Assembly: GCA_043757265.1 (NCBI GenBank)
Contig: JAYUQP010000018.1
Location: forward strand, 27,620 to 91,619
Source: Bdellovibrionales bacterium
Lineage (GTDB): Bacteria > Bdellovibrionota > Bdellovibrionia > Bdellovibrionales > JAGQZY01
Length of the DNA stretch: 64,000 bases
Direction: 5' to 3'
The notes beneath the pieces are model-generated. The model was not told where the DNA came from and made no database searches. It worked only from the letters and a program-made list of their open reading frames with translations. The position numbers were made by a program, and so were the translations under genes. This document shows, one piece after another, positions 12,387 through 27,558 of the stretch (positions within the stretch are counted from its first letter, which is position 1; the number at the start of each line of letters is the position of its first letter).

Positions 12387-12444
12387 GAGTCAGCCATTGC
12401 CACTGACTTCGCTGTTCAAAGAGTCAGCCATTGCCACTGGCTTC
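12387..12444. repeat. Tandem duplication (34-bp period) spanning the 3' end and stop codon of lpxH
   Basis: gagtcagccattgccactgActtc (12387-12410) and gagtcagccattgccactgGcttc (12421-12444). The second copy encodes the terminal ...SQWQWLTL* of lpxH. The first is a non-coding duplicate just downstream. Confidence 0.85.
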
Positions 12445-13150
12445 CGTGTTTGCGAAGTAGACGGCAGCCATCATCCCAACTTCCAAGATTGTAGCTAGTC
12501 ATTTTCTGCCCGCCTACAATAAACGTGGTTTCATCACGTAAATGCACGTGTCCCGTAACAATGGCTTGAAAAGGTCGTTCAGCAAAGACTTTGTTTGCAT
12601 GATTGTGAATGGTTTTTAGAATTCTTTGCGGATCCCGCAAGGAGTTTGTATATGCACGACTTGTTTTGCTCATGGTCCTACCAAGCCATGCAATAAAAAA
12701 TCCGGGCAGATAGAGGGCAATGGCCGTCATCACCGGGGTACGTAATAACCAGCGTAAAAATAAGTAACCTTTGTCGTCGGGATCCATTTGGTCGCCGTGC
12801 TCAACGCGCACGATTTCGTCGCCCATGTGAAAATACTCAGGATCGCTATGCACGATAATGCTGAGATCATCTTGCCAAAATTTTTTGAGGTGTAAATCAT
12901 GGTTACCCTCGAAATAGTGAATTTCCGAGCCTAAAGAGATCAATTTTTGCAGCTCTTCAATGAGCGGTTTGTATTTTTGAATAAAGTAATCGTGCTTGCC
13001 TATCCAAAGGTCAAAAATATCACCAACTAAAAATATAATTGATTGTTTTGCCTGGGACTCGAGGGAAATAAAAAAGCGCAGAAGAGTCTGCGCTTGGTCG
13101 TCATTCATATCTCTCAGATGTAAATCCGAGAGAAAATAATAACTTTTCAT
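12416..13150 (-). CDS. lpxH: UDP-2,3-diacylglucosamine pyrophosphatase (LpxH-type metallophosphoesterase)
   Basis: 244 aa. Motifs FLSDLHL, VGDIFDLWIG, GNHD and GHVH. Length and order of motifs match LpxH. Its start overlaps the ftsZ stop (TAATG). Confidence 0.85.
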   Translation of the reverse strand: MKSYYFLSDLHLRDMNDDQAQTLLRFFISLESQAKQSIIFLVGDIFDLWIGKHDYFIQKYKPLIEELQKLISLGSEIHYFEGNHDLHLKKFWQDDLSIIVHSDPEYFHMGDEIVRVEHGDQMDPDDKGYLFLRWLLRTPVMTAIALYLPGFFIAWLGRTMSKTSRAYTNSLRDPQRILKTIHNHANKVFAERPFQAIVTGHVHLRDETTFIVGGQKMTSYNLGSWDDGCRLLRKHGSQWQWLTL

Positions 13151-16001: not shown

Positions 16002-16745
16002 CTACGAATGCTTACGCAGCCTGACAAGAACTTTTTTTGCAAAGCTCGCATCGATGACGCGCCATTTTTGATTTTGACTTTCCAAATACTTTAAGACGTT
16101 TGCAACACGTTTTGCTTTTAAGTAGACATCGCCGTGACCTAAAACGATTTCGCCTTCGACGCCGTCACTCATCTCGAGAACCAAACCTTGCGCGTCACTC
16201 CAATCAATCTCGGCCACCTCAGATTTAGAAATGACACCTTCGTTGGGAATCAATTGGTAATGCTCAATAATCTTTTTTCTAACAATTTCGTTTTTTAAAA
16301 AAATTGAATTCCGTACAAATGGAACGTCAGGAGCATGCACTAAATCCATGAGTGGAAGAAGCGAGCCATCTTCGGTTGCAGCACGCACTCTTTTTTTGCC
16401 TTCAAAAAACACCAAGACTACAGTTTTTAGAAGAAGTTTTACTTCGACCCGGTCAGGCCACACTCTCTCCACGCTGACTGATTGTACGCTGGGATCTTCT
16501 AACAGATTGCGACGGATTTCCTTAAGTGGAACTTGCCAAAGATTTTTATCTTTGTAAGCAAGAAATCGAACTAACCATTTTACTTGGGTCTGGCGCAACA
16601 TTTCGGGATGCCACTGGTCGCCCGTCACCGATACCTGGACATCATGAAATGCAAAAATCGTCTGATCAAAATGAAAAATATACGCCGTCATACTCAACAC
16701 GCTCAAAACCGAAGCAGCAATAAATATCTTTACAGATTTCGACAT
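16002..16745 (-). CDS. ftsQ: Cell division protein FtsQ (POTRA domain)
   Basis: 247 aa with a single N-terminal TM and a POTRA-like region (VQVSVTGD...). Position immediately upstream of ftsA. Confidence 0.8.
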   Translation of the reverse strand: MSKSVKIFIAASVLSVLSMTAYIFHFDQTIFAFHDVQVSVTGDQWHPEMLRQTQVKWLVRFLAYKDKNLWQVPLKEIRRNLLEDPSVQSVSVERVWPDRVEVKLLLKTVVLVFFEGKKRVRAATEDGSLLPLMDLVHAPDVPFVRNSIFLKNEIVRKKIIEHYQLIPNEGVISKSEVAEIDWSDAQGLVLEMSDGVEGEIVLGHGDVYLKAKRVANVLKYLESQNQKWRVIDASFAKKVLVRLRKHS

Positions 16746-16897: not shown

Positions 16898-18031
16898 ATG
16901 CTTTCGATTTTCTGTATTATTTTTCTTTTTGCGCACACGTCCTTTGCAACGGGGCCGGCAACGGAGTTCGCATTTAGTGTGCAAGAAGAAACAAGTCTTT
17001 GGCAGCAACAGGTGCAAAAATTTCTGGCTGACAATCCGCAAGCTCAGCTTCTCACTCACGAGTCTTTACAAGCACTCTTTTTGCCCGCTAAAACTTCCGA
17101 CGCACCATTATTCATATTGTCATCGGGAATTCATGGCGCCGAAGCTTATGCCGGCGGCGCTTTGCAAAGGCTCTTTTTACAACAGTGGCAACTCACACCA
17201 AGAACCAGCGGACTCTTAATGATACACATCCTAAATCCCCACGGGTTTTCTCACTTTCGCCGTACCAATGCCTACAATGTTGATTTGAACCGCAACTTTT
17301 TTGTAGAGCCGCTACCAAACAATCAGGAATATAGAAATATGCAAACTTTGTTGGAACCAAATGCGCCAGCCTCCACATCGTTCCTTTCGAAATGGAATTT
17401 CTTTGTAAAAGTGGGTTGGTATTATTTGATGAATGGAAAAAAATCGATTCTCAATACGCTCGCTGGTCAAAGTCATGCTCCGAAAGGTTTGTATTTTTCG
17501 GGAACCGAAACACAAGCCGAAACTGTCGTCGTACAAAATTGGATTTTGCAGATCGCTAAAGACTTTTCCACAGTTTTACATATAGACCTCCACACCGGCT
17601 TCGGAGAGCGCGGAAAATTGCATTTTTATGGAAGCGAAGACTTTCGCCAGCCAGAACAAATTAAATCTCTTCAGAAGGTTTTCCCACACGTCAGAATTGA
17701 TACCGCTCATAATGCCGATTTTTATCCAACCCATGGAAATTTTATCGATTGGACCTGGAAAGCCTTACCGGAAAAAAAAATCATTCCCATGGTCTTCGAA
17801 TTTGGAACAAAAGACAGCCAAACCCTGCTGGGTGGAATGGAATCTTTCTGGATATCGGTGATCGAAAACCAAGGCTTTCATTTTGGATATAAAACAGACG
17901 AAGACAAACAAAACACCCGCGTGCTTTTTGAATCGTTGTTTAATCCCCAGGACGAAGCTTGGCGGAGGGCTGTACTTGAACAAGGCCAGGAAGCATTGAC
18001 CGAAGCCCTGCGGAACCTCGAAAAGAATTAG
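16898..18031 (+). CDS. Secreted M14-like zinc carboxypeptidase family protein (DUF2817-type)
   Basis: 377 aa with a signal peptide (MLSIFCIIFLFAHTSFA). Metal-ligand-like motifs GIHGAEAY (HxxE), DLNRNF and IDLHTGFG. Confidence 0.75.
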   Translation: MLSIFCIIFLFAHTSFATGPATEFAFSVQEETSLWQQQVQKFLADNPQAQLLTHESLQALFLPAKTSDAPLFILSSGIHGAEAYAGGALQRLFLQQWQLTPRTSGLLMIHILNPHGFSHFRRTNAYNVDLNRNFFVEPLPNNQEYRNMQTLLEPNAPASTSFLSKWNFFVKVGWYYLMNGKKSILNTLAGQSHAPKGLYFSGTETQAETVVVQNWILQIAKDFSTVLHIDLHTGFGERGKLHFYGSEDFRQPEQIKSLQKVFPHVRIDTAHNADFYPTHGNFIDWTWKALPEKKIIPMVFEFGTKDSQTLLGGMESFWISVIENQGFHFGYKTDEDKQNTRVLFESLFNPQDEAWRRAVLEQGQEALTEALRNLEKN

Positions 18032-18369
18032 AGTTATTCATTCCTTTAAGTTCTCTAGTAAATATTGGCCATTATTTCAATTGGCCCATCGCATTTCGTT
18101 TCAACTGGTGATAAAAAAAGTTTACGGGTTTTTATATCTTTTAGCTGGGCTGTGTTTGAATTTCGTTCTTGCTCTGGCAACTCTTGCACACTTTAAAAGT
18201 TCCGGCGGCCTAGGCTGTTTGTGAGTGTTACGCTTTCGACGATGTGTGTTTTCAAAACCTATTCTTTTTCGAAAAAAAATCAAAATCAGACCGTTCGGTA
18301 AGCACACTTGCTGATGTCGTGGCGGTTTGCCATGCTCTATGACCAACCGCCAACGTCAGTGCAATTTAA

Positions 18370-18693
18370 TTACATTCGCTCGGCAGGAACAATATAGCTC
18401 TGGAAGAAATCATCTTGGAAAACTTTTCCACTAAGACAAACTTCTTCGCCATCGACAAGGGCGTTAATAATTTGCGACGCCTTTTCGATATTATTGAAAT
18501 CGCCCGATGCCACGATTTCGTAAGTTTCGAACGCGGGCAAAAAGTCGCCAGCCGGCACTTCGAGTTTGTAAACCATCACTGTTGCCATCCCATTTGAAGA
18601 TTCGATTCTTACGGTTCCGCACAGTGGCTCATTCGCGCTCGCGTACACGTTTATTGAAGCCAAAAACACTATTACTACTGACATTATTTTCAT
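18370..18693 (-). CDS. Small secreted protein, unknown function
   Basis: The track ORF is 124 aa. An internal start gives MKIMSVVIVFLASINVYA/SANE..., a clean signal peptide. I recognise no family. Confidence 0.5.
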   Translation of the reverse strand: MKIMSVVIVFLASINVYASANEPLCGTVRIESSNGMATVMVYKLEVPAGDFLPAFETYEIVASGDFNNIEKASQIINALVDGEEVCLSGKVFQDDFFQSYIVPAERM

Positions 18694-18879
18694 ATCCCCT
18701 CCCAAGGTTGCAGATGTAGTATAGATAAAAAAAAGCTTTAGCAACGCCTCTACGAAAGCGGCCGTACACTTTGTAAAGTTGCTAAGGCCCTAACAGAACC
18801 CTGATGTTCGTAAATTCCCCTTGTCTCCAGTCTGTCCGTCACGGAGGCCTATTTAACATGGCACAATACCTGCACCAAC

Positions 18880-20490
18880 TTGACCGAGAATGGAAAAAGA
18901 ATTGCGGTTCGCTTGAATTTATTTTGGAGTCTTTTGTTCAGTACTTATCTTGTTGAAGACTGGGCCATCGTTGCAAGTTTGCTTGCTATTGCAGAGGGTA
19001 AGATCTCTTGGGGCGCGGCTTACGCTGCCTGCTTTTTTGGAATTTTAAGTGGTGATATTTTGCTCTACTTGCTGGGAAGATCCGCGAATATTTCTCCATG
19101 GCTGATGCATTGGTCTCTTTTTCAGAAAGTGCGCACTTTTATTAAAGAACCACGTCACCTCAATGCCATTGGGTGGGCCATCATTGTGGCCAGGGCTGTG
19201 CCTGGTACTCGATTTGTTACTTACACTGGAGCGGGGCTTGTCGCCTATTCTGCATGGCGATTTTTTATTTTAATTCCTCTTGCTGTCGCGGCCTGGGTGC
19301 TTCTCGCCTTTACCGGCGGTGGCGCCCTTCTTCAGTTGATTTCGACCCATTGGTTTTTTGGGTTGATGGTACTCCTGTCGACGTTCACTTTTCTACGAAT
19401 TCTAGTGCCAGTGCTTATTGACCCTTGGAATCGCAAATCGCTCATGCACACTTGGCGGCGCTGGTTTATTTTTGAATTCTGGCCTGCATGGTTCGCCTAC
19501 GCACCTCTTGTTCCGTATTATATTTACCTCTCCATCAAAAACGGCAGCGTATTTCATCCGTTCTACGCGAACCCAAGTATTCTTAACGGCGGACTCATTG
19601 GCGAAGCCAAGTGGGATATCCTTGGATATTTAGACCCTAAGGATCCCGCCACTTTGACAGTGATAAACATTCCCGCGGCCGCCCAATTCGAAAAAATAAA
19701 GACAAGGCTTGTGGAAAATTATTTTGAGTTTCCCTTAATTTGTAAGCCAAATGTCGGGCAACGCGGATTTGCCGTGCGGATCATTAAAAACTGGGAAGAG
19801 CTTGAGTCTTACGCCGAACATGCAAACTTTGATTTTTTGATTCAGCAAAAAAGCCGGTTTCGCCGCGAGGCCGGGATTTTCTACATCCGCCGACCTGGTG
19901 AGGACGTGGGCGAGATTTGCTCGATCACAGATAAGGATTTTCCGTTTGTTGTGGGCGACGGAAAAACAAAGCTAGGTGACCTCATTTTAAATGACCGTCG
20001 AGCCCGCATCATCGCTCCTATTTATTTTGGTCGACATCGTAAGGCTCTTGAAAAAATAATTGCTGCCGACGATGTTTTTTATCTTTCTGAGTGCGGAAAT
20101 CATTCCCAAGGAGCTATTTTTATAGATGGTCAGCATTTGCGCAGCGAGCCCCTGCGGAAACGCATCGATCAACTGGCTCATCGGTTACCACATTTTTATT
20201 TTGGACGTTTTGATGTGCGCTACAGAGATCATGAAAGTCTGATGCTTGGCCATGATTTTGAAATTGTTGAGATCAATGGTGCTGGAGCCGACATCACCCA
20301 CATCTACGATGAACACACCAAAGTTCGTGAAGCTTACCGAGTGATGTTTGGCCAGTGGCGTTCTTTGTTTGAAGTCGGCAAAGCCGCCCGCGCCATCCAT
20401 GGTGCTACGGCCTTGGTCGACACTCGCGCTTTCTTAAAGGAGTGCTTACGAGTGAATCTTCGCAAAAATGATTTATCAGTATCGACTTAG
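18880..20490 (+). CDS. Fusion protein: N-terminal DedA/VTT-family membrane domain plus C-terminal ATP-grasp ligase-like domain
   Basis: 536 aa. The N-terminal ~200 aa are polytopic, with DedA-like FGILSGDILLYLLGR and ARAVPGTRFVTYTGAG. The C-terminal part has ATP-grasp-like ICKPNVGQRGFAVRII and FEIVEINGAGADITHIYD. The TTG start is uncertain. Confidence 0.7.
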   Translation: MTENGKRIAVRLNLFWSLLFSTYLVEDWAIVASLLAIAEGKISWGAAYAACFFGILSGDILLYLLGRSANISPWLMHWSLFQKVRTFIKEPRHLNAIGWAIIVARAVPGTRFVTYTGAGLVAYSAWRFFILIPLAVAAWVLLAFTGGGALLQLISTHWFFGLMVLLSTFTFLRILVPVLIDPWNRKSLMHTWRRWFIFEFWPAWFAYAPLVPYYIYLSIKNGSVFHPFYANPSILNGGLIGEAKWDILGYLDPKDPATLTVINIPAAAQFEKIKTRLVENYFEFPLICKPNVGQRGFAVRIIKNWEELESYAEHANFDFLIQQKSRFRREAGIFYIRRPGEDVGEICSITDKDFPFVVGDGKTKLGDLILNDRRARIIAPIYFGRHRKALEKIIAADDVFYLSECGNHSQGAIFIDGQHLRSEPLRKRIDQLAHRLPHFYFGRFDVRYRDHESLMLGHDFEIVEINGAGADITHIYDEHTKVREAYRVMFGQWRSLFEVGKAARAIHGATALVDTRAFLKECLRVNLRKNDLSVST

Positions 20491-20544
20491 CCAAGACTTC
20501 GATGAGTTCTATATAAAATTGGCCATTTTTTAGTATCCACGAGT

Positions 20545-21438
20545 TCAGCGACCTAAAAAAATATACTCGGTCTCAAGCTCGACGCCGTTGTGAGCTTTCA
20601 CTGTGGCTTGTACATGCAGTCGAACGCTTTCGATATCCTTGGCTGTGGCGCCGCCTATGTTCACAATAAAATTAGCATGCTTTTCTGAAACCTGCGCGCC
20701 ACCCACTTGATAGCCTTTGAGCCCACACTCTTCAATCAGCCGTCCTGACTTATTTCCTGGAGGGTTTTTAAAAACCGAACCGCAACTTGGCAAGTGCAAT
20801 GGCTGCGTCGCCATTCGTCGCTTGTTGCTCTCTTGCAGTCGCTTTAGCACAGTATCATCAGCAGGTTCTTCCCACGTAATCCCAACACGAGTGATAATTC
20901 CAGGCTGCCAGCCATTTGTTTTTCGATAGAGCCACTGCAGGTCTGATTTGTTTTTACGAACAATATTGAACTCTTGCGATGACAGATCAACCCACTCCAC
21001 CCACTCCACAATTTCGCAAAATTCTTTGGGATGAATTTCATGTCCCACACCTGCGTTCATCACCACACCACCACCTACATCACCGGGAAGGCCTGCTAAG
21101 AAAATGGCTGCGCTTTGTCGTTGTTTGATGAAAACTTTCAACAACTCAGATTTCGGCATCCCAGCCTGGCATACCGCGCTTGTCTTATCACCTGCGATGT
21201 CCACGCTTTCAATCTTTGCAAATTTCGTTAACAGAATGACCAAACCCGCAACACCGTCGTCGCTGACGAGCACATTACTTCCACCACTTAGCACAGTTAC
21301 CGGCATTTTTTTGTCGCGCGCCCACCGACACGCTTTTTGAATGTCTTGAACGGATTCTGGAAACACTGCCCAGTCCGCGCTCCCGCCCACTTTCCACCAA
21401 GTGTGCTCCGCTAATTTGTAATTCTGTTTAAATTCCAT
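20545..21438 (-). CDS. murB: UDP-N-acetylenolpyruvoylglucosamine reductase
   Basis: 297 aa. FAD-binding domain (WKVGGSADW, LSGGSNVLV). C-terminal SCGSVFKNP and GGAQVSEKHANFIVN. Confidence 0.93.
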   Translation of the reverse strand: MEFKQNYKLAEHTWWKVGGSADWAVFPESVQDIQKACRWARDKKMPVTVLSGGSNVLVSDDGVAGLVILLTKFAKIESVDIAGDKTSAVCQAGMPKSELLKVFIKQRQSAAIFLAGLPGDVGGGVVMNAGVGHEIHPKEFCEIVEWVEWVDLSSQEFNIVRKNKSDLQWLYRKTNGWQPGIITRVGITWEEPADDTVLKRLQESNKRRMATQPLHLPSCGSVFKNPPGNKSGRLIEECGLKGYQVGGAQVSEKHANFIVNIGGATAKDIESVRLHVQATVKAHNGVELETEYIFLGR

Positions 21439-21462
21439 TTACGCTCCTTTTATACCAAATGG

Positions 21463-21676
21463 GCTTTTGAGATTTCTACATGGATATTTTGAATTTGAGA
21501 TCTTTCTTTTTATGACCTCTGTTGAGCGGCCCCCCGGAACGAGCTTGCTCGTGAACGAGCGCGAAGCGCGTGGGGACTTGGACGCGATCGCGAAGCGACA
21601 ACAGTTGAGACACGGAGGTCGTGTCATAAAAAGGAAGATCTCAAATTCAAAATAGCCACGCAGAAATTCCCAAAAG
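21463..21676. repeat. 214-bp palindromic element filling the murC-murB spacer (about 54-bp AT-rich arms, about 100-bp GC-rich centre)
   Basis: The left arm gcttttgagatttctacatggatattttgaatttgagatctttctttttatgac (21463-21516) pairs with 21623-21676. The inner 31 bp have 1 mismatch; the outer part has a few mismatches and a 1-nt indel. The centre contains sub-palindromes cgagcttgctcg, gcgcgaagcgcg and gcgatcgc. Confidence 0.9.
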
Positions 21677-21687
21677 CGTTTGTACAC

Positions 21688-23022
21688 CTAAATGAAATCG
21701 TAAAATTTGTTAACGTCGCCGGCGCCAAAGCACACTAAAACATCTCCTAGTTTGCATTCTTTGGTCAAAAGTTTTCGGGCCGTTGCAAACTCTCCAACCC
21801 ACTCTCCACGCCCGCCTTCGATCTCCGTTGCCAGTCTTTGCGCCGTGATGCCTTCGATGGGTTTTTCGCCAGCGGCATAAACTTCCATCAACCAAACTCT
21901 TTCGGCCACCGAGAAGGACTGAGTAAAATCTTTCCAGCAGGTTTGAGTTCGCGAATAGCGGTGCGGTTGAAATAAGACGTATATCTTTTGCGTAGGATAT
22001 TTCTCGCGAAAGGCTTGAAGCGTGGCTTTGACCTCGGTGGGATGATGTCCATAATCATCGTAAATTAAAACACCGTGTTTTTCGCCGCGAAGCTGAAAGC
22101 GTCGGTCTACACCTTTAAACAGGCCTACTCCGCGCAAACAGTCGTCCCACGGGACATCAGCAAAGTGACTGGCAATGACTGCGGAGAGTGCATTTAGGGC
22201 GTTGTGCCGTCCGGAGACTTGCAGCTTCATCTCGCCTAGGTTTTCTCCAAGCTTATCAAAAACAATATAGTTTCCATCTTTGCCTTCAAGATAGTAATCG
22301 TTGTTTTTGTTCATTCCGTAATAAATGATTTTTTTTGGAAAATCCTGATAGATCTCGCGAATGATGGGATCATCTCCGCAAACTACGGCTGCTCCGTAGA
22401 ATGGAACCTTTAAGGCAAATTCGTAAAAGGCTTTTTTGAGAGCGTCCATGGACTTGTAGTAGTCCAAATGGTCGTTATCGATATTTGTTATGATGCATAT
22501 CTCATGATTCAAACGCGAAAAACTGCCATCGCTCTCGTCGGCCTCGGCAATCATCCACGCCCCTTTACCTAAAAGCGCAGTGGACTTGATTAAATCCAAA
22601 CGACCGCCCACGGCAATGGTCGGCTCTTGCTGAGCATGTACAAAAATGGATGACGCAAAACTTGTGGTTGTGGTTTTTCCGTGGGTCCCTGCAATGGCAA
22701 GGCCTCGCTTCAAGTTCATAATCTCGGCGAGCGCCTCGGCGCGGGGGATTCTTGGAATGGCTCTACGCTTGGCCTCAAGCATTTCAGGATTGTCGCTTTT
22801 GACCGCGCTCGAATAAACCACCACATCACAGTTTTGGATATTTTCTGCTTTATGACCAAAATAAATTTTCACGCCCAATGATTGTAATCTTTTTGTCTGA
22901 TCGTTTTCCTTCATGTCGGTGCCAGAAACTGTAGCCCCCATTTTGTGCAACAGCTCGGCAAGGCCCGACATACCGATGCCGCCAATACCCAAAAAATGGA
23001 ATTGCGAGTTTGCAAATTTCAT
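21688..23022 (-). CDS. murC: UDP-N-acetylmuramate--L-alanine ligase
   Basis: 444 aa. HFLGIGGIGMSGLA N-terminus, GTHGKTTTT P-loop, Mur ligase central and C-terminal domains. ATGA overlap with murG. Confidence 0.95.
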   Translation of the reverse strand: MKFANSQFHFLGIGGIGMSGLAELLHKMGATVSGTDMKENDQTKRLQSLGVKIYFGHKAENIQNCDVVVYSSAVKSDNPEMLEAKRRAIPRIPRAEALAEIMNLKRGLAIAGTHGKTTTTSFASSIFVHAQQEPTIAVGGRLDLIKSTALLGKGAWMIAEADESDGSFSRLNHEICIITNIDNDHLDYYKSMDALKKAFYEFALKVPFYGAAVVCGDDPIIREIYQDFPKKIIYYGMNKNNDYYLEGKDGNYIVFDKLGENLGEMKLQVSGRHNALNALSAVIASHFADVPWDDCLRGVGLFKGVDRRFQLRGEKHGVLIYDDYGHHPTEVKATLQAFREKYPTQKIYVLFQPHRYSRTQTCWKDFTQSFSVAERVWLMEVYAAGEKPIEGITAQRLATEIEGGRGEWVGEFATARKLLTKECKLGDVLVCFGAGDVNKFYDFI

Positions 23023-25345: not shown

Positions 25346-26005
25346 CTATGGATAGTGCGCTGAAACTGCACGAACAATGCGATCACACATGATCTCATAG
25401 CCGTCATCGTTTGGATGAAACTGATCAGCCATTTTAGAGGCGTCATTCCACAACCCATCCATCCCATTAACAATGATGGCTCCATTTTCCCGGGCTACTT
25501 GCGCCATATCTTGCAGTCGCTTTGCAGCGGCCGGATCGTATGGCGGGTTAAGAGCTAAATATACAACAACAGCCCCGGCTGTTTGAAATTGAAGAATAAT
25601 GCGCTTGAGTTCGCGAACACTCTTGTCCGCAGGATAGGAACCGGGAGTGTAATACTCAGAAATCGCGTCGTTTCCACCGGTGCTGATAAAGGCAAGTTTA
25701 GGCGGTCGGTTGAGATAAAAAGGAACGTTGTCGACAAGCTCGTCTGTTTTTAATCCTGGGATTCCATAACTCGAAACCGTCGCACCAGAAAACTCGTTTT
25801 CCAAACACGCAGCGGGCGTGTAAACAAAATCTACGGATCCTGATCCATGGGCCAAACTATCGCCCATCACATGAATTCTACCCGCTCCAGGCTTTGAGTT
25901 TGTTATTTTTGGCCCCGTGTCCGTGGCGGCGTCTTCCGAGCTTGAACACCCGGCAATTAGAGATGCAAACACTAGCGAATAAAAAAGATTATTTATAATT
26001 TTCAT
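25346..26005 (-). CDS. SGNH/GDSL-family hydrolase lipoprotein
   Basis: 219 aa with lipobox LIAGC. Block I HVMGDSLAHG, block III STGGNDA, block V DQFHPNDDGY (DxxH). Confidence 0.8.
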   Translation of the reverse strand: MKIINNLFYSLVFASLIAGCSSSEDAATDTGPKITNSKPGAGRIHVMGDSLAHGSGSVDFVYTPAACLENEFSGATVSSYGIPGLKTDELVDNVPFYLNRPPKLAFISTGGNDAISEYYTPGSYPADKSVRELKRIILQFQTAGAVVVYLALNPPYDPAAAKRLQDMAQVARENGAIIVNGMDGLWNDASKMADQFHPNDDGYEIMCDRIVRAVSAHYP

Positions 26006-26169
26006 GATTCTCCCCCTTTAGAAAATTAAAGGGAGCATAGCAGTGACGTTTTAATTTAAAAGTCGCAGCGCAAAATTCACCTATCCAAGTCTAGTAGAGG
26101 CAAAAAGATGAGGGACTTATTGGAACCGGACTTGTGGCGATTGGACTCGCGAAGAATACTGGAAGGAGC

Positions 26170-27558
26170 ATGACGATATTTTTTATTTTCATTCTCTCAC
26201 TATCTTCTTACGCTCAGCAACCCGCCCCTGCAGCTTTTGACTGTCGCCAGGGAATGGTGGAATTTGGTGGCGCTCCCAATCGGGGAGTTGCCAATCGACA
26301 ACCCCTTTGCACTCAAGATCCAGGGCGAATGGTGGCTGAACTCAAACAAGCAATCACGCAGTACCTTTGCCTTTACCACGCGGATCTTGAGTGTTTACAG
26401 AAAAACCAGGCTTTTTTGGCATCAAGAAGAAACCAACAGGGCAACTTTGCACAGGACTTTGAAAGAATGGTCGGCAGTCAGTATTTGAACTCTTGGCTGC
26501 GAAATTCGAACAATCACTACTACCATCCGGGTCTTGCTTCCGAATCATCTCTCTTTCCCGACGAAACCCAGCAAAACAGTGGGATCACCACGGATGTGGT
26601 GCAAATCCTCGCGAACTTTGTCCCTGGCGGCGTGGCAAGACTCGCTAGCATTGGCACATCCGTTTTTGGAACTTTTCAAACCATGGGACGTTCGTCCACG
26701 GGTACCGATCCGGGCAACGACTGCACAATTCCCAGAAACAGGTTTATCAATGCGCAGCCCGTACCCGACTCACGGGGTTCAGCAAGTAAGATTTGCTCCC
26801 CAAGCTATAACTTCAATTCCAATCCTGTTGCAGACTTTCTCAAGCAGGATCCGCAACTCCAAGCAACGGGTTTGGTTTGCGCGGATGTTTGCCTCTACTA
26901 TGCCCAACTTCTTAGCCATATGAATCTTGCCAATTTGCAGATCCTTGGAAGCGTGATGCCTATTTTCAGTCAACGCCCCCAGTGCCTTGCGGGGGGCAGA
27001 GCAAGTTTCAGTTTCTGCGCCATGAGAGAAAGCTTAGGAGGGTTTAGCGGAGACGTGAACTGGAACTGCCTGGACAACCGAGGCCAGCATATTTCGCACA
27101 CAGGCCGCATGGTGCTTCCTCTCGAATGGAGTGTCACAACCGATCTGATCGCCCGAAGCGAAGTTCAAGCCACTGTGAGCCCCACCTACAATCTGGATTC
27201 AGATAGAGTCACCATGCGAGTGCCCACTATTCCCCGCATGCGAGCCGGAGCAAGCCCCCCTGCCGCCGTGGCTGCACCCATCGGTGGGCTTGCATCATAC
27301 GAGACCCGTGAAGGAATCACGCTTCGCGATGCCTTCCACCGCACTCAATATGCCATTGGTAGCGGGCCACAGGTACCACTTTTATCGCTGCGCGGTGACC
27401 CTGCTCTTCGAGGAATGGGTATTGCTTCCGCCGTTGTTTCGGGTTGTTGCTCTGTGCCCGAGCCAAATCGCGAACAATGTTTACGAGCTCTGCCCACCAC
27501 CGAAATGTATCGCCCGCGGGACCGCAACGAAGAAACAGCAATCCCTACAAATAATTAA
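26170..27558 (+). CDS. Secreted cysteine-rich protein, unknown function
   Basis: I chose the ATG at 26170 because GGAAGGAG lies 2-9 nt upstream. Signal peptide MTIFFIFILSLSSYA/QQ. About 16 Cys are spread through ~460 aa. I recognise no family. Confidence 0.6.
   Translation: MTIFFIFILSLSSYAQQPAPAAFDCRQGMVEFGGAPNRGVANRQPLCTQDPGRMVAELKQAITQYLCLYHADLECLQKNQAFLASRRNQQGNFAQDFERMVGSQYLNSWLRNSNNHYYHPGLASESSLFPDETQQNSGITTDVVQILANFVPGGVARLASIGTSVFGTFQTMGRSSTGTDPGNDCTIPRNRFINAQPVPDSRGSASKICSPSYNFNSNPVADFLKQDPQLQATGLVCADVCLYYAQLLSHMNLANLQILGSVMPIFSQRPQCLAGGRASFSFCAMRESLGGFSGDVNWNCLDNRGQHISHTGRMVLPLEWSVTTDLIARSEVQATVSPTYNLDSDRVTMRVPTIPRMRAGASPPAAVAAPIGGLASYETREGITLRDAFHRTQYAIGSGPQVPLLSLRGDPALRGMGIASAVVSGCCSVPEPNREQCLRALPTTEMYRPRDRNEETAIPTNN

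Follow-up and report, generated by a model that had tools for sequence, protein, structure and literature searches.

MprF is an aminoacyl-phosphatidylglycerol synthase-flippase that uses aminoacyl-tRNA as the donor and forms an ester on phosphatidylglycerol, a modification that hydrolases reverse. The same logic of a head-group enzyme, a translocator domain and an exported α/β-hydrolase, as in MprF combined with AcvB, PA0919 or AhyD, would also apply to a protein family that we describe here. The member with which we are concerned is a 536-residue DedA/VTT–ATP-grasp fusion, encoded in a 64,000-nucleotide stretch of a Bdellovibrionales genome (contig JAYUQP010000018.1; hereafter the window) between the murB and ftsQ genes of the division and cell wall (dcw) cluster. 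Unlike MprF, the fusion would draw on ATP and make an amide bond, probably with an aminolipid. The resemblance does not extend to ancestry, as no MprF synthase or flippase domain was detected in it in Pfam or NCBIfam scans.

The ligase part of the fusion is most similar to the G domains of the cyanophycin synthetases CphA1 and CphA2 and to RimK and GshB, with which it shares the fold, the KP…G-rich loop, an R-x-D motif and the E-x-N Mg ligands. The same chemistry is expected, in which an acyl-phosphate is converted to an amide. However, the fusion is only ~16% identical to CphA and RimK (E-values of 1e-5 to 1e-3), it has no Mur-ligase-like domain, the pre-ATP-grasp domain appears to be replaced by a DedA domain together with a membrane-surface segment, and no Pfam or NCBIfam model covers its ligase part. 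With the DedA/VTT proteins (YqjA/YghB, UptA, TMEM41B/VMP1) it shares a match to VTT_dom (slightly under the gathering score), an acidic pair, the R-x-x-P-G-x-R motif and polytopic helices. Characterised DedA proteins stand alone, whereas here the domain is joined to a ligase and, in many cases, to a periplasmic α/β-hydrolase too, and the operons of the fusion point to aminolipids rather than to undecaprenyl phosphate as in UptA. The predicted chemistry also resembles that of the taurine:ornithine-lipid transferase of Gluconobacter cerinus, which forms an amide on a carboxyl in an ATP-dependent manner; for this transfer of taurine to the carboxyl of ornithine lipid, which yields cerilipin, the gene has not been identified (PMC12971839). 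Amide-extended head groups of the Orn-taurine and Gly-Ser types are known (PMC12493201).

The fusion gene and the parts of its product are the following.

18880-20490, plus strand: DedA/VTT–ATP-grasp fusion, 536 aa; the database start at TTG 18934 gives a protein of 518 aa (P0001)
18880-19419, plus strand: DedA/VTT domain, residues 1-180 (VTT_dom 8e-7, helical hydrophobic segments)
19420-19644, plus strand: membrane-proximal linker, residues 181-255 (motifs W-R-x-x-x-F-E-F-W-P and NP…GG-IGE-K-W)
19645-20490, plus strand: ATP-grasp amide-ligase core, residues 256-536 (CphA G domain/RimK type closest)

The initial annotation, made from the DNA letters alone, had read the C-terminal half as an ATP-grasp ligase devoid of Ddl motifs and the N-terminal half as a polytopic DedA/VTT domain, and both assignments stand. 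The motifs quoted in it, KPNVGQRGFAVRII and EIVEINGAGAD, are present in the 536-residue protein. An AlphaFold2 model based on 38 sequences has a mean pLDDT of 89.7 and a pTM of 0.75. Foldseek comparison with the PDB yielded 157 matches at E≤1e-3, and all 50 listed are ATP-grasp enzymes, among them CphA2 (7ta5, 8.7e-8), GshF (3ln7, 1.6e-7) and Ddl (~3e-6), with 230-300 columns aligned. A profile of the family retrieved CphA2 from the PDB as well (7ta5, 3.4e-5; 8fxh, 1.7e-3) over ~200 residues at ~16% identity, while a PDB search with the single sequence gave nothing significant. The alignment with CphA2 spans the KP…G-rich loop, the GDG…L-I lid insert, the N-x-x-x-G motif, which faces A-N-I-S-A-G-G of CphA2, and the D and E-x-N Mg ligands. 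K289-P290, G293-Q-R-G296, R443, D445, E464 and N466 are invariant in the 38 sequences, as are the equivalent catalytic residues in 31 proteins of the larger, tri-domain architecture described below. The C-terminal half gave faint RimK and CPS-like matches in Pfam, and a faint RimK match was also found in the tri-domain protein P0167. No Ddl model matched the fusion in Pfam at E≤0.1 and no bacterial Ddl in NCBIfam, where a match to an archaeal pseudomurein ATP-grasp model (E 0.027) scored 13 bits, where the cut-off is 500. Fold and catalytic residues thus confirm the ATP-grasp assignment of the C-terminal half, and its reading as a carboxylate-amine ligase is supported. As the similarity is weak, it is a distant relative of the CphA G-domain/RimK clade that belongs to neither family in the strict sense.

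Only helices are seen in the model as far as residue ~255, and the PDB profile matches begin at residues ~259-265; the classical N-terminal pre-ATP-grasp domain appears to be missing from the protein and to be replaced by membrane segments. Twelve linker residues are invariant (E199, F200, W201, P202, Y207, P209, P232, G238, G241, E242, K244 and W245). The match of the window protein to VTT_dom reaches 30.0 bits (E 8e-7) against a gathering score of 33.9, with 40-57 bits for the tri-domain relatives, and PF09335 is precomputed on nearly all homologues. Conservation of the DedA residues E26, D27, D59, R105, P108, G109 and R111 is complete or almost so, G58 is invariant, and the tri-domain equivalents E335, D336, D368, R416, P419, G420 and R422 are invariant. 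The acidic residues and the R-x-x-P-G-x-R motif are reportedly essential in YqjA of Escherichia coli. With charged signature residues that vary in neither the two-domain nor the tri-domain form, the DedA domain appears to be functional.

Protein searches identified 530 homologues of the fusion, nearly all of them of ~525 residues with a query coverage of 96-99%, and a scan of one genome per species yielded 203 loci. These hundreds of full-length homologues exclude a frameshift or an assembly artefact, which the initial annotation had named as a risk. Sequence identity is 40-79% in Bdellovibrionota and 33-38% in Verrucomicrobiota, Planctomycetota and others, and full-length homologues are also present in Acidobacteriota. 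The C-terminal ATP-grasp domain alone is represented by 2,332 representative clusters. As initially supposed, no function has been described for the fusion: its homologues are named at most 'membrane protein DedA', and our literature searches found no paper that brings ATP-grasp together with DedA, VTT or TANGO2, or DedA together with ornithine lipid. The fusion is part of a large family of membrane-embedded ligases that is not annotated as such.

Three architectures were found in this family, namely the two-domain form of ~525 residues, short forms of 350-430 residues and proteins of 800-1,100 residues with an N-terminal α/β-hydrolase domain. The short forms have no DedA domain, and only a hydrophobic 'EFWP' segment precedes the ligase; P0181 and P0193 begin with that segment. 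The α/β-hydrolase–DedA–ATP-grasp form, a Rosetta-stone fusion, is widespread (P0167 and ~340 relatives), and a single protein of 1121 residues, P0178, has TANGO2/NRDE in front of the three other domains. Saltatorellus ferox, a planctomycete available in culture, has the tri-domain form as well, under no other name than 'alpha/beta fold hydrolase'; the public labels of tri-domain proteins are either that one or 'pimeloyl-ACP methyl ester carboxylesterase/DedA'.

The export signals of the hydrolases bear on the topology of the system. Stand-alone α/β-hydrolases encoded next to the fusion harbour lipoboxes and are homologous to the fused hydrolase domain (1e-14 to 1e-19), and most tri-domain proteins have a signal anchor, Arg-rich and N-in, ahead of their hydrolase domain. 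The α/β-hydrolase is thus predicted to be periplasmic, and the ATP-grasp domain must be cytoplasmic because it needs ATP. With a hydrolase on one side and a ligase on the other, the system would act at the two faces of the inner membrane, as would be expected if the DedA domain translocates.

Genetic environments were counted in 80 genomic loci (L001-L080) and in 80 metagenomic loci of the tri-domain form. ORFs of the genomic loci were clustered and scored with HMMs, with names taken from Pfam and NCBIfam; the proportions given for the metagenomic operon refer to the loci with enough upstream DNA. This operon is tightly packed on one strand, in the order olsB-like, olsA-like, DinB_2, TANGO2 and fusion. 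An olsA-like gene lies upstream of the tri-domain fusion in 29/41 loci, and an olsB-like gene is found near it in 22/34 loci on the same strand and in 26/34 in either orientation; the figures are 33/57 for DinB and 19/52 for TANGO2. By simple reasoning, chance alone would place a single-copy gene no more than 5 kb from another one in far less than 1% of cases. In NCBIfam, the two acyltransferase-like proteins are matched best, over their full length, by OlsB (1e-38 to 5e-40) and OlsA (1e-41 to 6e-46). A Blastocatellales metagenome-assembled genome (MAG; locus L092) has a YHS gene next to an olsB-like, olsA-like and tri-domain fusion series.

Two further groups of genes were observed in these metagenomic loci. 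Upstream of the olsB-like gene, 13 loci have a gene for a ferric-reductase-type transmembrane protein with a Rieske [2Fe-2S] domain (e.g. L127 3809-5618 and L119 2664-4483), followed by one for a protein of 255-281 residues without Pfam match. A conserved protein of 224-247 residues, also without Pfam match, is encoded after the fusion in 12 loci.

The loci of a Bdellovibrionota subfamily that we call type A have other partners as well. Divergent from the fusion gene are genes for an exported YHS (seleno)protein (NF041384, 2e-33), DoxX and a 546-residue protein, and these loci often include an olsB-like GNAT, a lipoprotein α/β-hydrolase, an ECF sigma/anti-sigma pair and an olsA-like acyltransferase. 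In some of them, olsB-like, arginase and olsA-like genes directly follow the 3' end of the fusion gene, 1-12 bp apart. An olsB-like gene is present in 11/41 Bdellovibrionota loci, in some cases overlapping the fusion gene or 1-12 bp away from it. Arginase, which supplies ornithine, adjoins the fusion in two loci (1.1e-57).

The 546-residue neighbour is a cysteine dioxygenase–CSAD fusion (CDO-CSAD) of 540-570 residues, found in 23 Bdellovibrionota loci (e.g. L004 3187-4827). Its dioxygenase part matches Bacillus subtilis CDO in a PDB profile search (1.6e-9) and retains the His triad and the H-x-Y motif. Its decarboxylase part matches mammalian CSAD (1.6e-86) better than GADL1 or GAD and much better than DABA decarboxylase. 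It is thus predicted to be a hypotaurine/taurine pathway in one polypeptide. Most carriers of the fusion, in the Planctomycetota and Verrucomicrobiota, have no CDO-CSAD neighbour, so the amine may differ from that of the cerilipin system.

In Verrucomicrobiota the gene order is YHS, DoxX, DinB_2, fusion and TANGO2/NRDE, with junctions that overlap or span 1-12 bp. Across phyla, the commonest neighbours of the two-domain form are the YHS (seleno)protein (38/80) and DoxX (31/80), a pair for which our literature search found no paper mentioning both. Peptidoglycan genes are not conserved partners in the genomic or the metagenomic loci.

Based on these associations, we tentatively propose that the fusion is a cytoplasmic amide ligase that extends the head group of an aminolipid, and that its DedA domain translocates the lipid, a proposal to which we give somewhat less than an even chance. 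At the membrane surface, the ATP-grasp domain would convert a carboxylate into an acyl-phosphate and then couple it to an amine. The substrate would be presented from the membrane, with the linker segment and the DedA domain in place of a classical substrate domain. As judged by the genomic association, it would most probably be the head group of an acyloxyacyl aminolipid of the OlsB/OlsA type, i.e. of the ornithine-lipid kind. In type-A Bdellovibrionota, the likely amine would be hypotaurine or taurine from CDO-CSAD, and the resulting lipid would be cerilipin-like. Once modified, the lipid would be carried across the inner membrane by the DedA domain, and the periplasmic α/β-hydrolases, fused or as lipoproteins, would remodel or remove the modification. 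The fold, the catalytic residues, the existence and distribution of the fusion, its operon associations and the export signals of the hydrolases are observed; we infer the lipid nature of the substrate, the side that supplies the carboxylate and the flipping by the DedA domain.

Several observations weigh against this proposal. The functional evidence is all guilt by association. The OlsB and OlsA matches are below the NCBIfam equivalog cut-offs, and the amino acid of the head group is not fixed by them. In the two-domain loci of Verrucomicrobiota, olsBA-like genes are rare within 6 kb. The lipid model leaves YHS and DoxX unexplained, and these two hint at sulfur or redox chemistry. By simple topology rules, the parity of the first DedA helix differs between the two-domain and the tri-domain forms. 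Lastly, the window fusion is a member of type B, a second subfamily of the Bdellovibrionales (60-80% identity) with another genetic context. Type-B genes are usually preceded by a gene for an HrmI-like heme-oxygenase-like diiron enzyme, whose end overlaps the start of the fusion gene (L002 5078-6022, L088 2853-3752, L091 6064-6975) and which matches HrmI, a lysine N-oxygenase (PDB 9n1a), at 1.5e-30. Further partners are a divergent MTS methyltransferase upstream and a cytoplasmic M14-like protein accompanied by an α/β-hydrolase. The two subfamilies can occur in one MAG (L003, L019). In the 64-kb window, no partner of either type was found, and the substrates of the window copy are for this reason the least certain part of the proposal.

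The location of the window copy might suggest a role in peptidoglycan synthesis. The dcw genes of the window are on the minus strand, in the order murE, murF, mraY, murD; ftsW, murG, murC, murB; ftsQ, ftsA, ftsZ. The features around the fusion gene are as follows.

16002-16745, minus strand: ftsQ, left flank of the gap (POTRA_1 5e-9 and FtsQ_DivIB_C in Pfam)
16898-18031, plus strand: exported DUF2817/M14-like zinc peptidase, 377 aa (Pfam DUF2817, PF10994, 4.7e-50)
18054-18077, no strand: left copy of an imperfect 24-nt direct repeat (repeat search)
18370-18693, minus strand: small secreted orphan protein, 107 aa (ORF 18370-18744, ATG at 18693)
20508-20531, no strand: right copy of the imperfect 24-nt direct repeat (repeat search)
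20545-21438, minus strand: murB, right flank of the gap (MurB_C 1.3e-35 and FAD_binding_4)
25346-26005, minus strand: GDSL-lipase-like gene in the ftsW-murD interruption
26134-27558, plus strand: 474-aa ORF without Pfam match in the ftsW-murD interruption

The interval between ftsQ and murB thus contains the three genes that the initial annotation had placed there, for the DUF2817 protein, the small protein and the fusion. That annotation regarded the interval as the ddl slot and the three genes as a module, and neither view is borne out. We retrieved the dcw clusters of five relatives via their FtsQ homologues, whose identity with the window FtsQ goes from 76% down to 30%. Over this 76-30% range, ftsA and ftsZ are downstream of ftsQ in the orthologues, and MurB is 89-60% identical. 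In the three closest relatives (FtsQ 76%, 57% and 41%), murC-murB is followed by variable cargo, a divergent DUF2817 gene and ftsQ-ftsA-ftsZ. The cargo is a Peptidase_S9 gene and a 147-residue ORF in the first, a gene for an Ig-like protein of 262 residues in the second and a 133-residue ORF in the third. More distant Bdellovibrio have other unrelated genes in the gap. A ddl gene is present in the gap in 0/5 relatives, and so are the fusion and the small protein. Conversely, 0/80 genomic loci have murB, ftsQ or a DUF2817 gene of the window type beside the fusion, and the fusion is at the murB-ftsQ gap in this genome only. The gap is a variable cargo site in this lineage, in which DUF2817 is the only conserved resident.

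Because DUF2817 stays next to ftsQ in relatives that have no fusion, and none of the 80 fusion loci is dcw-linked, the dcw position of the fusion is incidental, and its gene is an unrelated passenger, a stray type-B copy. Position within a dcw cluster can therefore mislead annotation. A replacement of Ddl by the fusion is rejected: the two share the ATP-grasp superfamily and, in this genome, the murB-ftsQ location, but the fusion is membrane-embedded, is encoded on the strand opposite to the dcw genes and has no Ddl features, and ddl was at this site in none of the five relatives. No match to Ddl was found in the 64-kb window by tblastn with an approximate E. coli DdlB query, which makes this a weak negative taken alone.

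The two copies of the 24-nt repeat, which are identical at 19/24 positions and include ATTGGCCAT, bracket exactly the small ORF and the fusion gene. They are the two matches of this repeat in the window, for 0 expected by chance, and the repeat is absent from all 172 other loci examined; it may be a footprint of the arrival of the cargo. Promoter and terminator scans gave results at or below chance, and aligning the DNA flanking the cargo to the relatives was uninformative.

The DUF2817 gene is divergent from ftsQ. Weaker Pfam matches of its product are AstE_AspA and Peptidase_M14, and orthologues are encoded at the same position in three relatives (L081 5774-6913, 69%; L083 5668-6855, 54%; L084 5579-6838, 44%). 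All four proteins have a signal-like hydrophobic N-terminus, in agreement with the initial prediction of a secreted M14-like protein, and H79, E82 and H232 (the HxxE…H zinc ligands), the DLNRN motif and the catalytic E301 are invariant among them. By these features, DUF2817 is predicted to be a lineage-conserved, exported and catalytically intact M14-like enzyme tied to ftsQ. A PDB profile search gave weak matches to REP34 and MpaA, and because of the weak similarity to the latter it may well act on peptidoglycan. We also considered whether the M14-like neighbour of type-B fusions might be the same protein, which is ruled out, as the two are 21% identical and the former is cytoplasmic without signal peptide. 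For the small protein, GGGAGG precedes the ATG at 18693, which is likely the true start, and the N-terminus is signal-peptide-like. It has no Pfam or NCBIfam match and no homologue in the dcw loci of the relatives; although it is called as a gene in an NCBI assembly, it forms a singleton cluster.

Other peculiarities of this dcw cluster were noted. The murC-murB spacer (21440-21690 in the window) is 250 bp long, versus 18 bp in the relative L081, and consists of a near-perfect long inverted repeat (fold energy -106.6 kcal/mol, z = -9.0) with arms at 21487-21516 and 21623-21652. It is present as a single copy in the window and looks like an insertion of the type of a miniature inverted-repeat transposable element (MITE); an 82-residue ORF at 21439-21687 is probably spurious. 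The cluster has a second interruption between ftsW and murD (25346-27558), two genes that are contiguous in the relative L084. A gene for a calcineurin-like phosphoesterase (12416-13150) shares base 13150 with the stop codon of ftsZ, and such a gene directly follows ftsZ in 5/5 relatives (84-38% identity).

We weighed three other explanations against the aminolipid ligase. The product might be a soluble dipeptide-like or amide metabolite, such as a (hypo)taurine or cysteine conjugate or a low-molecular-weight thiol, exported by the DedA domain for periplasmic redox protection, with the aminolipid genes being co-regulated only. We consider this unlikely, but it does account for a number of observations. 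The glutathione synthetase ATP-grasp domain of GshF is among the top structural matches, and several conserved partners suggest thiol or redox chemistry, namely the YHS (seleno)protein, DoxX, DinB_2, DUF1223, MsrA/MsrB and the ECF sigma/anti-sigma pair, to which an ArsC/glutaredoxin-like gene 17 bp upstream of the fusion in L090 can be added; DinB and NRDE are likewise unexplained by the lipid model. CDO-CSAD would make hypotaurine, an antioxidant. Nevertheless, in most tri-domain loci the fusion is coupled on the same strand to olsB-olsA-like genes, and the short forms without a DedA domain retain the hydrophobic membrane-surface segment, which would be needless for a soluble substrate. The soluble substrate domain usual at the N-terminus of ATP-grasp enzymes seems to be absent, and characterised DedA proteins are generally implicated in the translocation of lipids or lipid carriers.

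The two remaining explanations are far less probable. The closest profile relatives of the ligase being G domains of cyanophycin synthetase 2 (3.4e-5 and 1.7e-3), one might envisage a RimK- or cyanophycin-like tailing of a protein or peptide, or an exported poly-amino acid, processed by M14, α/β and Ntn hydrolases. The faint RimK match in Pfam, the arginase genes adjoining the fusion in two loci and the M14-type peptidases beside it in several others would fit, but the latter are rare (2/80 genomic and 1/80 metagenomic loci), lipid acyltransferases dominate among the partners, no conserved gene for a small peptide or an acceptor protein was found, and there is no Mur-ligase-like M domain, unlike in CphA1. 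We thus hold this explanation to be quite improbable. Even less credit can be given to a ligase that would modify the stem peptide of lipid II or an undecaprenyl-phosphate-linked intermediate, with the DedA domain handling the carrier and DUF2817 trimming the stems. ATP-grasp ligases do act on peptidoglycan precursors, as exemplified by Ddl and the D-Asp ligase of enterococci, and UptA, a member of the DedA family that flips undecaprenyl phosphate, gives a faint NCBIfam match with the fusion (E 0.052); the dcw location and the resemblance of DUF2817 to MpaA, a murein peptide amidase, go in the same direction. However, that location is unique to this genome, the relatives have unrelated cargo in place of the fusion beside their own DUF2817, and the gene is on the strand opposite to the dcw genes and bracketed by direct repeats. 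The initial annotation had suggested an envelope or peptide-stem modification module. Its envelope part is well supported, as a role in envelope lipids, by the aminolipid partners; a peptide-stem or undecaprenyl-linked role is unlikely because the conserved partners are aminolipid genes, DinB, TANGO2/NRDE, α/β-hydrolase, YHS, DoxX and CDO-CSAD, none of which is a peptidoglycan gene.

Returning to the aminolipid ligase, the family associates amide ligation driven by ATP with olsB/olsA operons and with an enzyme that forms taurine. This makes it a candidate for the enzyme that attaches taurine to ornithine lipid at the expense of ATP, based on the olsBA-like operons and the CDO-CSAD genes of the relatives, neither of which is present in the window, and a candidate more generally for the synthesis of dipeptide-type aminolipid head groups. 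In a bolder version, which we regard as doubtful, the family would be the missing class of enzymes for aminolipid amide extension, including the taurine/hypotaurine:ornithine-lipid ligase sought since the 1970s, with the DedA domain as a dedicated flippase. Thousands of proteins in the databases are currently labelled just 'DedA' or 'alpha/beta fold hydrolase', their ligase domain having gone unrecognised. If this bolder version is true, these would include the first DedA protein with a lipid substrate fixed by gene fusion, which makes the family a natural experiment on DedA cargo, and new, widespread modified aminolipids would be expected in Bdellovibrionota, Planctomycetota, Verrucomicrobiota and Acidobacteriota.

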